DNA of 64,000 nt from contig DASVDX010000070.1 in NCBI GenBank assembly GCA_036380875.1, positions 20,233 to 84,232 of the forward strand, read 5' to 3'. Source of the DNA: Acidimicrobiia bacterium. Its GTDB lineage: Bacteria > Actinomycetota > Acidimicrobiia > Spongiisociales > ZC4RG35. Shown here piece by piece: positions 4,059-64,000 of the stretch. Each line of letters begins with the position of its first letter. The stretch's first letter is position 1. Below the pieces are notes generated by a model that saw nothing but the letters and a program-made list of their open reading frames with translations, did not search any database and had not been told where the DNA came from. The position numbers and the translations under genes were made by a program.

Positions 4059-5399
4059 ATGGACGACCTGTTCGCCGCCCGGGCGGAACAAAACCTCGAG
4101 TCGGTGGCTCCCCTCGCCACACGCATGCGCCCCCGCAACCTGGACGAGGTGGTAGGACAGCCCGCCTTGCTCGCGCCCGGAGCGGCGTTCCGGCGGGTGG
4201 TGGAGTCCGGCAACCCGGTCTCGATGATCCTCTGGGGCCCGCCCGGAACCGGAAAGACCACCCTTGCCCGCCTCGTCGCCCATCACACGGCAGCCGCCTT
4301 CGAGACGCTGTCAGCCACGTCCGCCGGCGTCAAGGACGTGCGCGAGGTGCTGAGCCGGGCTCGCCAGCGCCTGGAGATGGACGAGAAGCGCACCGTGCTG
4401 TTCCTCGACGAGATCCACCGGTTCTCGAAGAACCAGCAGGACGCTCTCCTTCCGGGAGTGGAGGACGGCACCATCGTCCTTATCGGGGCGACGACCGAGA
4501 ACCCCTTCTTCGAGGTCAACAGCCCGCTGATCTCCCGGTCCACCCTCTTCCGCCTCGAACCCCTGGAGCCCGAGCATCTCGAAGCCTTGATCGACCGGGC
4601 GATGACCGACCGGGAGCGAGGGCTCGGCGGCCGCAACCTGAAGATCGATCCCGAGGCGAGAGCGGCCCTGGCTCGACGTACCGGAGGCGACGCCCGACTG
4701 TCCCTCAACACCCTGGAGGTGGCCGCCACCTTGGCGGAGGGCAGGGGCTCCGCCACGGTCGAGACCGAAGACGTAGAAGAGGCGTTGCAGCGCCGGATCG
4801 TTCGTTACGACAAGGCCGGCGACGTCCACTACGACGTCATCTCCGCCTTCATCAAGAGCCTCCGCGGTTCCGACCCGGACGCCGCCGTGTACTGGCTGCA
4901 TCTCATGCTCGAGGGCGGCGAGGACCCCGAGTTCATCGCCCGGCGGATGGTGATCTTCGCCTCCGAGGACGTCGGCCTGGCCGACAACCGAGCTCTCGAA
5001 GTGGCCGTGGCAGCGGCCCACGCCCTCGCTTTCGTCGGTTTGCCCGAGGCGGCATTCGCCCTGACCCACGCTGCCCTGTACCTGGCGACCGCCCCGAAGT
5101 CGAACTCGGTGACCACCACGATGGCTGCGGCCAGAAAGGCGGTGCGGGAAGGTCCTGCCCCTGTCGTGCCTCCCCATCTGCGCGACGCCCACTACCCGGG
5201 GGCGGGCGAGATCGGCCACGGCGAGGGTTATCGGTACCCCCACGACTACCCGGGCCACATCGTCGACCAGCGCTACTGGCCGGAGGGCCAGGAGCCGCTC
5301 ACCCTGTATCGCCCCAGCCGGCAGGGAGCGGAGAAGGCCCGGGCGGAGTGGTTCGCGGAGCTGGAGGCGTCGATAGGCCGAAAGCGGAACCGGGAGTGA
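4059..5399 (+). CDS. rarA: Replication-associated recombination protein A (AAA+ ATPase)
   Basis: PLATRMRP, GPPGTGKTT, DEIHRF, GATTENP, SAFIKSLRGSDPDAA; start re-picked at ATG 4059 (MDDLF). Confidence 0.95.
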   Translation: MDDLFAARAEQNLESVAPLATRMRPRNLDEVVGQPALLAPGAAFRRVVESGNPVSMILWGPPGTGKTTLARLVAHHTAAAFETLSATSAGVKDVREVLSRARQRLEMDEKRTVLFLDEIHRFSKNQQDALLPGVEDGTIVLIGATTENPFFEVNSPLISRSTLFRLEPLEPEHLEALIDRAMTDRERGLGGRNLKIDPEARAALARRTGGDARLSLNTLEVAATLAEGRGSATVETEDVEEALQRRIVRYDKAGDVHYDVISAFIKSLRGSDPDAAVYWLHLMLEGGEDPEFIARRMVIFASEDVGLADNRALEVAVAAAHALAFVGLPEAAFALTHAALYLATAPKSNSVTTTMAAARKAVREGPAPVVPPHLRDAHYPGAGEIGHGEGYRYPHDYPGHIVDQRYWPEGQEPLTLYRPSRQGAEKARAEWFAELEASIGRKRNRE

Positions 5400-58757: not shown

Positions 58758-60284
<1,527 letters not shown>

Positions 60285-60450
60285 CTAAGGAGCTAAGACG
60301 GATGGTATTTGCACCATCCCAGCTCTTAGTTGATCTGCTGACTATTCATCTCCTTCTCCGATCTCAGAGTCTCGACGGAACGAACGAGCTCGTCGCAAGG
60401 CGAGTGGTTCGGATGAGTCGTGCCTCGAGGGAAGAGGCGAGATGGGTCAT

Positions 60451-60470
60451 GCTGTTCAGTCGTGAAGGAG
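60451..60470 (+). other. 3' strand of 16S processing stalk
   Basis: GCTGTTCAGTCGTGAAGGAG pairs with 58573-58592. Confidence 0.8.
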
Positions 60471-60520
60471 TCCTCCCGGAGGCCTGGCATGTGCCAGGCG
60501 CTCTAGGACGCCTTCAGGCA

Positions 60521-60539
60521 CCTTGAGAACTGCATAGCG
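60521..60539 (+). other. 5' strand of 23S processing stalk / boxA-like element
   Basis: CCTTGAGAACTGCATAGCG is similar to leader CCTTGACAACTGAACAGCG. Confidence 0.65.
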
Positions 60540-61102
60540 AGCACGATGTCTTGGAATTCTCTATATCCAAGCTACTAAGGGCCAACGGTGGATGCCTTGG
60601 CGCTAGGAGACGATGAAGGACGTGGCAGGCTGCGATAAGCCCCGGGGAGCCGTCAAGCAGGCACCGATCCGGGGATGTCCGAATGGGGAAACCCGACTGG
60701 GGTCATGCCCAGTCACTCCGGTCTGAACACATAGGGCCGGTAGAGACAACCAGGGGAATTGAAACATCTCAGTACCCTGAGGAAAGGAAAGCAATAGCGA
60801 CTCCCTGAGTAGTGGCGAGCGAAACGGGATGAGCCTAAACCGATGCAGTGTCAAAGCCCGGTGGCGTTGCTGTATCGGGGTCGTGGGACCCACCCGCTGG
60901 TGCACCGGAGCCGGCAAGGAGTTACAAACTCGGCGGTTAGTCGAACACAGCTGGAAAGCTGGGCCACAGGAGGTAATAGCCCTGTAGACGAAAACTGACC
61001 GAGCTCCTGGTGGTGTTCCCAAGTAGCACGGAGGATATTCCGTGTGAATCTGCGAGGACCACCTCGTAAGGCTAAGTACTACCTAGCGACCGATAGCGGA
61101 CA

Positions 61103-61133
<31 letters not shown>

Positions 61134-61622
61134 GGCGAGGGGAGTGAAATAGTACCTGAAACCGTTGGCTTACAAGCAGTGGGAGGAGTTGCTTGCAACT
61201 CTGACCGCCTGCCTTTTGAAGAATGAGCCGACGAGTTAGCGATATGTGGCGAGGTTAAGGTGTAAAGCCGTAGCCGAAGCGAAAGCGAGTCTTAATAGGG
61301 CGTCTAGTCGCATGTCCTAGACCCGAAGCCGAGTGAGCTATCCATGGGCAGGGTGAAGCGAGGGTAAGACCTCGTGGAGGCCCGAACCCACCAAGGCGAA
61401 AACTTGGGGGATGACCTGTGGATAGGGGTGAAAGGCCAATCAAACTCGGCGATAGCTGGTTCTCCCCGAAATAGCTTTTGGGCTAGCGTCGTGTGTTCCG
61501 TGCTGGGGGTAGAGCACTGATTGGGCTAGGGGGCCAACAAGCTTACCGAACTCAGTCAAACTCCGAATCCCAGTACGCCAAGCACGGCAGTCAGTCTACG
61601 GGGGATGAGCTTCGTAGACGCG

Positions 61623-61655
<33 letters not shown>

Positions 61656-61728
61656 CAAATCTCAACTAAGTGGGAAACGATGTGGGATCGCCCAAACAGC
61701 CAGGATGTTGGCTTAGAAGCAGCCACCA

Positions 61729-61764
<36 letters not shown>

Positions 61765-62646
61765 CCTGCGCGGAAAATGTAACGGGGCTCAAGTTGAGTA
61801 CCGAAGCTGCGGGATTTCGTGACGATTCGTCGTCACGGGATCGGTAGGGGAGCGTCATGCCACCAGCGAAGCGGCGGCGTAAGCCAGCCGTGGAGGTGAC
61901 ATGAGTGAGAATGTCGGCATGAGTAGCGAAAGAGGAGTGAGAATCTCCTCCGCCGAATGTCCAAGGGTTCCTGGGGAAGGTTCGTCCGCCCAGGGTAAGT
62001 CGGGACCTAAGGCGAGGCCGCGAGGCGTAGTCGATGGACAACAGGTTGATATTCCTGTACCGCTCTATGCGCGTCCCGGCCGAATCTGGTGTGCTAAGGA
62101 AAGCCCTTCGGGGCCTACCGACCCCGCCAGTACTAGGCCAGCGATGGGGTGACACGGAAAGGTAAGCGGACCCGGGCGATGGTTGTTCCCGGGGTAAGCG
62201 TGCGGGGCGGCACCTAGGCAAATCCGGGTGCCACAAAGCCCGAGGCGCGATGCCGAGCCGCTTTAGGCGAAGCCGCTGACCCTATGCCGTCGAGAAAAAC
62301 CTCTAGCGAGCTCATAGGGCGCCCGTACCCCAAACCGACACAGGTGGACAGGTAGAGAATACCAAGGCGAGCGAGTTAACCCTGGTTAAGGAACTCGGCA
62401 AAATGGCTCCGTAACTTCGGGAGAAGGAGCGCCCCGGTAAGGTGAAGGACTTCGCGTCCCGAGCTTGAGGGGGCCGCAGAAACCAGGCCCAAGCGACTGT
62501 TTACCAAAAACACAGCAGCGTGCTAAGTCGCAAGACGACGTATACGCTGTGACGCCTGCCCGGTGCTGGAAGGTTAAGTGGATGGGTTAGCTTCGGCGAA
62601 GCCCTGAAACAAAGCCCCAGTAAACGGCGGCCGTAACTATAACGGT

Positions 62647-63398
62647 TACTACCCAAGTGGCCGTGGGTAAACCTGGCTGTATGCTGGGACATCCGAGTAT
62701 CCGACGGTACTCGTTCATGTCACAACCGTCTCGTACGGTGCTGACATGGGCAGTGAAAATCCGATCGGTGCGGACGATCAGCAGGAAACCGAACGCACTG
62801 TGGAGCTCGCTCCCTGGTGGGTTGTCGGGTTCGTCGATGGTGAAGGCTGCTTCTCAGTGAGCCTGCACCGGAACGAACTGGCAACACCCACAAGAGGCTG
62901 GCACATCCAGCCGACGTTCCAGGTCTCTCAGCATTGCGACAACCGCGGTGTCTTGTTGGAGCTCCGAGACTTCTTCGGGGCCGGCACCGTGAGGAGCAAG
63001 GGCCCGAGAACCCCTGTGCACGTCTATGTGGTTCACAGCACCAAGGAGCTGATGAGAACGGTGATCCCGTTCTTCGAGGGGCATCCACTACGCGTCAAGC
63101 GGGAGGACTTCGAGATCTTCGCCCGGATCACCCGAGCGATCAGATCGAGGAGTCATCACCGCCCAGAGGTGTTCGATGAGCTGGTGCGACTGGCCTACTC
63201 GATGAATGCGAGAGGCAAACAACGCAAACGGCCCATCGAAGAGATCCTCTCGGGATCCTCAGAGACTGTACGCCAGGCACCACTCTCATCTGAGTGGTGA
63301 AGATACAGTCCGATCCTCATGGCGACATGAGGAGCCAGACAGAAATGATCTGGCCACTCACATTCGAATATGAGCCGAATGTGAGGAGTAACAACATG
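62647..63398 (+). mobile_element. Group I intron (IB-like) inserted after 23S U1923 (E. coli numbering)
   Basis: Splits AACTATAACGGT|CCTAAGGTAGCG; U.G in P1 with IGS GCCGT; P4 TGCTG/CAGCA; P7 GACTGT/ACAGTC; terminal G. Confidence 0.95.
62746..63300 (+). CDS. Single-motif LAGLIDADG homing endonuclease in the intron
   Basis: WVVGFVDGEGCFSV motif, FQVSQ, PFFEGHPL..KREDF; alternative start GTG 62800. Confidence 0.92.
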   Translation: MGSENPIGADDQQETERTVELAPWWVVGFVDGEGCFSVSLHRNELATPTRGWHIQPTFQVSQHCDNRGVLLELRDFFGAGTVRSKGPRTPVHVYVVHSTKELMRTVIPFFEGHPLRVKREDFEIFARITRAIRSRSHHRPEVFDELVRLAYSMNARGKQRKRPIEEILSGSSETVRQAPLSSEW

Positions 63399-63453
<55 letters not shown>

Positions 63454-63963
63454 CGACTTGGGCACTGTCTCAACCAGGGACTCGGCGAAATTGCAGTGTG
63501 AGTAAAGATGCTCACTACCTGCGGCAGGACGGAAAGACCCCGGAACCTTGACTGTAGCTTGACATTGGAGTCTGACGGGTGATGTGTAGGATAGGTGGGA
63601 GACTGGGAAGCAGCGGCGCCAGCCGTTGTGGAGTCGCCCTTGAAATACCACCCTTCACTCGGCGGCCTTCTAACCTCGGTCCGTTATCCGGATCAGGGAC
63701 AGTGTCTGGTAGGCAGTTTCACTGGGGCGGTGGCCTCCTAAAAGGTAACGGAGGCGCCCAAAGGTTCCCTCAATCCGGTTGGCAATCGGATGTTGAGTGT
63801 AAAGGCACAAGGGAGCTTGACTGCGAGACCTACAAGTCGAGCAGGGACGAAAGTCGGGCTTAGTGATCCCATGGTGGCATGTGGGTGCGCCATGGCTCAA
63901 CGGCTAAAAGGTACTCCGGGGATAACAGGCTCATACCCCCCAAGAGTCCATATCGACGGGGGT

Positions 63964-64000
<37 letters not shown>

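Follow-up and report, generated by a model that had tools for sequence, protein, structure and literature searches.

The 64,000-nucleotide (nt) stretch of contig DASVDX010000070.1 analysed here, referred to as the window, ends within a ribosomal RNA (rRNA) operon whose 23S rRNA gene is split by an insert of 752 nt. This insert is very probably a group I intron containing a homing-endonuclease gene. It is located directly after the position corresponding to U1923 of Escherichia coli, at the base of helix 69, the helix of ribosomal bridge B2a, and by its predicted structure it belongs to a group I type lacking P2 and possessing an extended P5 arm. A preliminary description of the window had proposed a group I intron at this site in an actinobacterium. 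The proposal of the intron is supported by the exact site, a covarying core, covariation between guide sequence and exon, and the conserved terminal G. The main features are, with + denoting the forward strand:

60565-64000 (+): 23S rRNA gene, intron host; match to Rfam LSU_rRNA_bacteria with 2309 bits
62642-62646 (+): 5' exon end ACGGU, E. coli positions 1919-1923; 3' strand of helix 69 and 5' strand of P1, 100% paired in 73 introns
62647-63398 (+): 752-nt insert, read as a group I intron
62746-63300 (+): LAGLIDADG open reading frame (ORF), 184 codons; Pfam LAGLIDADG_1 (PF00961), E 3e-17
63399-63410 (+): 3' exon start CCUAAGGUAGCG, E. coli position 1924 onward

The 23S rRNA gene is truncated by the window end at position 2552 of the LSU_rRNA_bacteria model, and the match spans the insert. 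The 16S rRNA gene is located at 58758-60284, and no other rRNA operon is visible in the window. At the junction, TAACTATAACGGT, ending at 62646, and CCTAAGGTAGCG, starting at 63399, form a universally conserved stretch of 23S rRNA that is interrupted by exactly 752 nt, the split already reported in the preliminary description. A complete 23S sequence of the same organism was available from a separately recorded metagenome contig of the Joint Genome Institute (JGI; L012), which matches the window without any difference where the two overlap. Its alignment by MAFFT with the E. coli reference rrlH (L013) placed the insert after position 1923 with both exon-intron junctions exact to the base, and no other insert of intron size was detected in the complete gene.

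Since the Rfam group I model RF00028 scored below its threshold also for related introns, the fold was derived by comparative analysis. All counts refer to alignment A2 of 73 non-identical introns located exactly at position 1923. The predicted helices follow in the order P1, P3, P4, the P5 arm (P5, P5a, P5b, P5c), P6, P6a, P7, P8, P9, P9.1, and P9.2, and P2 is absent between P1 and P3. The elements of the fold are:

62642-62646 (ACGGT) with 62660-62664 (GCCGT) (+): P1; splice-site U.G (U62646) invariant in 73 introns
62660-62664 (+): guide sequence GCCGU, 3' strand of P1; same sequence as the 5' strand of helix 69
62672-62677 (CCUGGC) with 63272-63277 (GCCAGG) (+): P3; 97.7% paired, both-side changes in five of six pairs
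62682-62687 (UGCUGG) with 62778-62783 (UCAGCA) (+): P4; 100% paired, invariant in 73 introns, 3' strand also coding
62692-62774 (+): P5 arm, four helices
62692-62695 with 62771-62774 (+): P5; 97.6% paired, three of four pairs covarying
62701-62707 with 62761-62768 (+): P5a, A62764 bulged; 99.6% paired, seven of seven pairs covarying
62708-62716 with 62748-62755 (+): P5b; 94.7% paired
62718-62746 (+): P5c, distal hairpin, 3' strand containing the ATG; variable in length, poorly aligned, 62-84% paired
62784-62786 (GGA) with 63256-63258 (+): P6
62789-62792 (CCGA) with 63250-63253 (+): P6a
63250-63258 (+): 3' strands of P6a and P6 (UCGG...UCC)
63259-63263 (+): J6/7 (UCAGA)
63264-63270 (GACUGUA) with 63304-63310 (+): P7; five core pairs 100% paired, two covarying, pseudoknot with P3
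63278-63299 (+): P8 hairpin, CACCACUC / GAGUGGUG; double changes in eight of eight pairs, 75.7% paired
63300-63310 (+): J8/7 (AAGAU) and 3' strand of P7 (ACAGUC), aligned to the RF00028 consensus gAAGAUAUAGUC; nearly invariant in 73 introns
63314-63333 (+): P9 hairpin with GCGA tetraloop; 93.8% paired, six of eight pairs covarying
63334-63354 (+): P9.1 hairpin with conserved loop CAGAAAUGA; 98.8% paired, six of six pairs covarying
63357-63385 (+): P9.2 hairpin, variable in length; 76% paired, ten of ten pairs covarying
63398 (+): terminal G (omega G); 72 of 73 homologues end in G

In the proposed fold, 89.1% of the pair cells contain standard pairs, compared with 34-45% when the 3' partners are slid by one to three columns. 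The covariation score amounts to 0.363 versus 0.06-0.09 for the slid versions, compensatory changes on both sides are found in 64 of 92 pairs, and none of 500 shuffles matched the observed values. P3, P5, P5a, P9, and P9.1 are each paired to 94-100%, with most pairs covarying. P6 and P6a together are 90.5% paired (five of seven pairs covarying), and the loop closed by them contains the body of the ORF. The lower value of P8 is due to its distal part, which differs in length between introns. The stretch from J6/7 to P7 agrees with the RF00028 consensus UCAaAGACU, and GGAUCCUCAGAGACU, in the region of the P6a and P6 3' strands and J6/7, is almost invariant in nucleotides despite being coding. 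P1 with its U.G pair, P3, P4, P7 (there given as GACTGT with ACAGTC, here 63264-63269 with 63305-63310), the P8 and P9 hairpins, and the terminal G had already been named in the preliminary description, and all of them are confirmed.

The strongest single piece of evidence for the fold is the covariation of P1, a helix that extends into the intron by pairing of 62647-62649 with 62657-62659. Across the 73 introns, the guide sequence changes in concert with exon position 1921 and the helix-69 partner of this position, 1909, without exception. The combinations of exon and guide are AACGGT/GGCCGT in 52 introns, AACCGT/GGCGGT in 12, and AACGGT/GGCTGT in nine, corresponding to GC, CG, and GU pairs between position 1921 and the guide. 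Because the guide is a copy of the helix-69 5' strand, P1 and helix 69 appear as alternative pairings of the same exon strand.

A local GAGUA/UACUC hairpin at about 62695-62712 was considered as well and was rejected in favour of the covarying long-range helices P5a and P5b. The sequence GUAACAA (63388-63394), found 4-6 nt before the 3' splice site, is nearly invariant in all 73 homologues and resembles the helix-69 exon sequence GUAACUAUAA. No covarying partner for it was found in the alignment; pairing with J1/3, which reads GUUAC in many introns, was rejected, since J1/3 varies while GUAAC is constant.

Several introns deviate from the common fold in their peripheral parts. Those of L068, L074, L078, and L081, which carry Ignavibacteria/Chlorobi labels, are A+T-rich and devoid of P5c, and their P1 loop contains a long insertion; in L076 and L079 (Gemmatimonadota labels) P9.1 and P9.2 are missing. 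As the core is retained in spite of these losses, the peripheral elements are dispensable or lineage-specific. The intron at L008:249-970 is the only one of the 73 that ends in A (...CACATA/CCTAAGG), and the usual P9.1/P9.2 sequence is missing from it; decay of this copy or a shift of its 3' splice site may be responsible.

Intervening sequences are the most frequent inserts of bacterial 23S rRNA genes (PMC11270868), and an element of the kind known from enterobacteria and Coxiella would be excised by RNase III and the ends left unligated, which would yield fragmented 23S rRNA. Such sequences are short and occupy other sites, 23IS2 and 23IS4, or helix 45 in Coxiella (PMC11270868), whereas in the insert of the window a homing-endonuclease gene is combined with an omega G, a U.G splice site, and a group I core that is complete and covarying. 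That it is an intervening sequence is extremely improbable.

The ORF of the putative group I intron occupies most of the insert, starting in the P5 extension, filling the P6 loop, and ending in P8. Its product matches PF00961 over residues 27-126 with 63.8 bits (cut-off 23.1); no NCBIfam model matched the ORF. A single LAGLIDADG motif, VVGFVDGEG, is present at residues 26-34, including the acidic E33, and its D-G-E-G is invariant in the protein alignments A1 and A3. With one motif only, the endonuclease should act as a homodimer. An AlphaFold (AF2) model calculated from 32 homologues reached a mean predicted local distance difference test (pLDDT) value of 80, and more than 90 over residues 21-150. 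Its elements, helix 23-33, strands 34-42 and 52-63, helix 64-77, strands 81-84 and 91-96, and helix 99-112, agree with the arrangement alpha-beta-beta-alpha-beta-beta-alpha, and I-TnaI and I-CreI are matched with template modelling (TM) scores of 0.8-0.9. When the model was used in a Foldseek search, I-TnaI was the best solved structure (35% identity, target-normalised TM 0.89), followed by I-Vdi141I, halves of I-OnuI-family proteins, and I-CreI.

The chloroplast intron of Chlamydomonas eugametos that encodes I-CeuI is inserted at site 1923 as well, and the preliminary description had spoken of the I-CeuI site. This holds for the position and not for the enzyme, which is far closer to I-TnaI. 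I-CeuI (2ex5) matched residues 22-115 with an E-value of 2.3e-7, compared to 2e-24 for I-TnaI and 1e-29 to 1e-36 for I-OnuI-type proteins, and it was not among the top 50 Foldseek matches. The two endonucleases are thus only distantly similar and share only the target site; the protein of the window can in no obvious sense be called an orthologue of I-CeuI.

Coding sequence and ribozyme overlap at both ends of the ORF. The 3' strand of P5c, the distal hairpin, contains the start codon, and codons 2-15, conserved as GSENPIGADDQQET, also specify P5b', P5a', P5', P4', and the 5' strand of P6. At the other end, the last 17 or so codons traverse P6', J6/7, P7, P3', and P8, with the TGA stop codon (63298-63300) in the 3' strand of P8. 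The near-invariance of nucleotides in these overlaps fits a double constraint by coding and RNA structure. In 70 of the 73 introns the frame is intact and open over at least 175 codons. Differences between the ORF of the window and those of its relatives are mostly at third codon positions, and the comparison with L001 yielded 39 third-position differences versus 11 and 11 at the other two positions. Judged from these patterns, the ORF is kept intact and under selection. Exceptions were also noted: a 1-nt insertion and a 1-nt deletion put the intervening stretch of about 35 codons in L011 (= L061) out of frame, and the frames of L058, L066, and L070 are also shorter. These frames are either decaying genes or the result of long-read indel errors.

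To define the distribution of the element, one genome of each GTDB species was scanned. A first scan yielded 11 loci, and a second one, applying an alignment of the proteins from the first, detected at least 396 coding stretches, the best 80 of which were examined. After placement of exon landmarks, the 73 introns at 1923 were obtained, with sizes from 696 to 804 nt. The element is therefore present in at least 73 GTDB species. Most of the metagenome-assembled genomes (MAGs) carrying it are labelled Acidimicrobiia, Acidimicrobiales, Acidimicrobiaceae, or Microthrixaceae, and smaller groups bear the labels Acidobacteriota, Gemmatimonadota, Ignavibacteria/Chlorobi, Methylococcaceae, and Paceibacterota. 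In a protein search of the metagenome collection, 1479 homologues of the endonuclease were found, mostly on short contigs. The intron is common in public genomes of Acidimicrobiia, and the rarity of rRNA group I introns in bacteria, which the preliminary description had mentioned, does not apply to this lineage.

Additional introns accompany the 1923 intron in related genomes. In the Actinomycetota MAG D5M12_6 (JBKHKD010000023.1, L003:2897-4644), the 23S rRNA gene carries three group I introns within 30 exon bases: an intron of 747 nt with ORF at 1923, one of about 707 nt at 1931 with a 184-codon LAGLIDADG ORF whose product is 41% identical to that of the window, and one of about 265 nt at 1951/1952, which has no ORF and, with 37.7 bits, scores highest of the set against RF00028. 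They are separated by exons of only 8 and 20-21 nt. In L007 (2156-2889) and L066 (about 658-1393), an extra intron of about 735 nt is located between U1911 and A1912, separated from the 1923 intron by the 12-nt exon AACTATAACGGT and showing a partial RF00028 match (30.7 bits). L007 harbors another intron farther downstream, with a partial RF00028 match at 4847-4995. A second insert at 1931 (landmarks e2 and e3 apart) or 1951 (e3 and e4 apart) is found in many genomes with the 1923 intron (L001, L002, L010, L019, L027, L028, L031, L032, L034, L035, L041, L044, L045, L048, L049, L051, L054, L057, L059, L060, L062, L063, L065, L071, L073, L076, L079, L084). Genes for 23S rRNA with multiple introns seem to be common in this group.

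The nearest labelled genome, L001 ('Acidimicrobiia bacterium'), is 96-97% identical to the window in the exons and 88% in the intron, and a helix-68 signature is common to the window and the named Actinomycetota Ca. Actinomarina and Salsipaludibacter. For these two reasons the host, an uncultured bacterium from soil resembling Acidimicrobiia, is assigned to the Actinomycetota, in agreement with the earlier proposal of an actinobacterium. ARAGORN detected no tRNA genes in the 64-kb window, including the 280-nt spacer that separates the 16S rRNA gene from the 23S rRNA gene (60285-60564), and we take a tRNA-free spacer to be a supporting hint for an actinobacterial host.

Some labels of related sequences conflict with this assignment. 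A number of long-read contigs with rRNA about 90% identical to that of the window (L005/L006, L015, L047, L058, L072, and others) are labelled 'Acidobacteriota' and carry the same actinobacterial helix-68 signature. L005 and L006 are identical rRNA loci at contig ends from two bins of one sample, one labelled Acidobacteriota and the other Actinomycetes. These conflicts point to mistakes of binning or labelling in the vicinity of rRNA operons, and the Acidobacteriota labels of the close rRNA relatives are doubtful.

When intron identity was compared with the identity of 900 nt of upstream exon in 65 loci, a strong correlation was observed (Spearman 0.84; Mantel r 0.87, not reached in any of 999 permutations). 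Intron divergence tracks divergence of the host rRNA, and from these comparisons inheritance of the intron looks mainly vertical. An uninterrupted 1923 site was found in 38 genomes with the helix-68 signature of the window, including Ca. Actinomarina, the OCS155 cluster, Salsipaludibacter albus, and Nitriliruptorales. The 23S rRNA of the nearest intron-less sequences is 89-93% identical, and among the sequences compared no difference in presence or absence between very close relatives was seen; recent homing is thus a prediction only. The survey of 23S genes in related genomes that the preliminary description had advised thus produced both intron-containing and intron-less genes. Its view of a mobile element is upheld by the LAGLIDADG ORF, which it had overlooked and which is the only direct evidence of mobility, and is qualified by the mostly vertical inheritance.

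These data also bear on the quality of the assembly. Operons for rRNA are hard to assemble and to bin, as the conflicting labels of the identical loci L005 and L006 illustrate, and a foreign intron-bearing fragment could have been joined into this rRNA gene. An artefact of this kind, which the preliminary description had named as a possible refutation, is very improbable. The same sequence was recovered on L012, the junctions are precise to the base, and homologues are located mid-contig in megabase-scale long-read contigs (0.4-4.5 Mb) and in two closed chromosomes (OZ244202.1, OZ244139.1). Chimeras would not yield the correlation between intron and exon divergence described above.

From its structure, guanosine-dependent self-splicing of the group I intron and cleavage of the target by its endonuclease are predicted. 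In the precursor, the guide GCCGU would pair with exon positions 1919-1923 in place of the helix-69 5' strand, to which it is identical, and thereby form P1 with its U.G pair. An external guanosine bound to P7 would then attack the 5' splice site, the terminal G63398 would take its place, and the exons would be joined, restoring helix 69. Since the intron resides in one strand of helix 69 and the guide copies the other, ribosome assembly would have to await splicing or be coupled to it. On DNA, the predicted activity of the endonuclease is cleavage of 23S rRNA genes without intron at the universally conserved 1923 site (TAACTATAACGGTCCTAAGGTAGCG), after which repair would copy the intron into it. 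The protein may also, or instead, aid folding of the RNA, as the Thermotoga protein does.

Several points weigh against this interpretation. A local match to RF00028 was obtained at 63173-63332, covering J6/7-P7-P3'-P8-P7'-P9, with 28.5 bits and an E-value of 3.7e-5 (851 nt searched); the curated gathering threshold of 50 bits is missed, and the whole window yielded no intron match to Rfam at gathering thresholds. The covariance-model search suggested in the preliminary description was thus positive locally and remained below the curated cut-off. As related introns, including the ORF-less one at position 1951, score 24-38 bits, we attribute the low score to the general model, which is unable to bridge an ORF of about 460 nt in P6, and not to a biological shortfall of the intron. 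P4 provides no evidence by covariation because it is invariant in all 73 introns, and a convincing P10 was not found, as no more than a single base 5' of the guide can pair with the 3' exon. Present-day homing is predicted only, with inheritance looking mainly vertical. Splicing, cleavage specificity, and any maturase role are what we infer from the features described. According to the report by Everett (1999), as cited in PMC11270868, the group I intron at position 1931 of Simkania is unspliced.

This precedent makes retention possible in principle, and the insert of the window could be a group I intron in form that has lost splicing, being kept in mature 23S rRNA or residing in a dead rRNA operon; the window shows a single operon. 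We consider such a loss improbable. The ribozyme core has been maintained by compensatory changes across 73 species with several phylum labels, the guide follows changes of the exon, and the omega G is retained in nearly all homologues, which implies ongoing selection for splicing. In addition, the flanking rRNA is fully intact and conserved, and from what is established about bridge B2a, 752 nt retained at the base of helix 69 should be harmful. A splicing group I intron is the preferred explanation.

The kind of element is entirely familiar. Archaeal group I introns of class IB4 are known at LSU/1923 (large subunit rRNA), a site termed previously observed (Nawrocki, Jones and Eddy 2018, PMC6125680). 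By description, the archaeal and chloroplast 1923 introns share with the intron of the window the site, the group I ribozyme, in many cases a LAGLIDADG ORF, and a size of about 700-750 nt (PMC6125680); the host of the window's intron, in contrast, is a free-living bacterium of the Actinomycetota. Published work puts the type without P2 in IB4 or in 'IC1-like without P2'. By analogy with the archaeal IB4 introns at LSU/1923 and LSU/1931, and with P2 missing, IB4 would be the tentative assignment.

Among bacterial introns, those compiled in 2007 (PMC1995217) are located at 1917, 1931, 1951, and 2593 in Thermotoga, Simkania, Coxiella, and cyanobacteria; 1923 is absent from this compilation. In the cyanobacterial introns at 1917 and 1931, P2 is missing, P5 is complex, and the ORF reaches from a loop into P7/P3/P8 (PMC1995217), features that recur in the intron of the window. 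The compiled introns are also found in the same gene region (helices 69-71) and belong to the same size class (654-774 nt, endonucleases of 143-189 amino acids). The one at position 1931 of Thermotoga encodes I-TnaI, the best structural match as described above, and related MAGs have paralogous 1931 and 1951 introns beside that at 1923. The differences are a new host phylum and the occurrence in many mesophilic soil and water MAGs instead of a few thermophiles and intracellular bacteria.

A survey of the Candidate Phyla Radiation (CPR) listed introns at 1917, 1931, 1952, 2593, 2604, and 2657, not at 1923, and described bacteria outside the CPR as poor in introns (Tsurumaki et al. 2024, PMC11270868). 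The CPR/Patescibacteria introns resemble those described here in occurring several per 23S rRNA gene and in encoding single-domain LAGLIDADG_1 proteins of about 180 amino acids (PMC11270868). The more distant matches of our searches included CPR genomes (L043, L080, L082, L086, L088, L093). No paper on rRNA group I introns in Acidimicrobiia or Actinobacteria was found in the literature searched, and within this literature the combination of host and site is new for bacteria, with the sequences being abundant in public assemblies.

A wider view, to which we give about even chances, is that group I introns are a regular and long-standing feature of 23S rRNA genes in Acidimicrobiia and their relatives from soil and water, with up to three or four in helices 69-71 (1911, 1923, 1931, 1951), inherited mainly vertically, and with endonucleases under selection, perhaps as splicing helpers. 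If true, this would overturn the textbook view of non-CPR bacterial rRNA introns as confined to a few thermophiles and intracellular species. No new mechanism is involved; the host range and the known abundance of a familiar element are extended, and its breadth is the more interesting aspect, with many species of Acidimicrobiia carrying the 1923 intron, often along with those at 1931, 1951, or even 1911. Introns in rRNA break amplicon primers and annotation models, so that intron-bearing Acidimicrobiia may be under-counted or mis-annotated. The introns also provide a large natural set of single-chain-length LAGLIDADG enzymes that share one universal 23S target, of possible interest for enzyme engineering.

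Apart from the intron, the 23S rRNA of the window differs from that of E. coli by an extra 28, 51, and 69 nt after positions 274, 286, and 1405, respectively. The last of these is presumably the site of the actinobacterial 'helix 54a' insertion in domain III.

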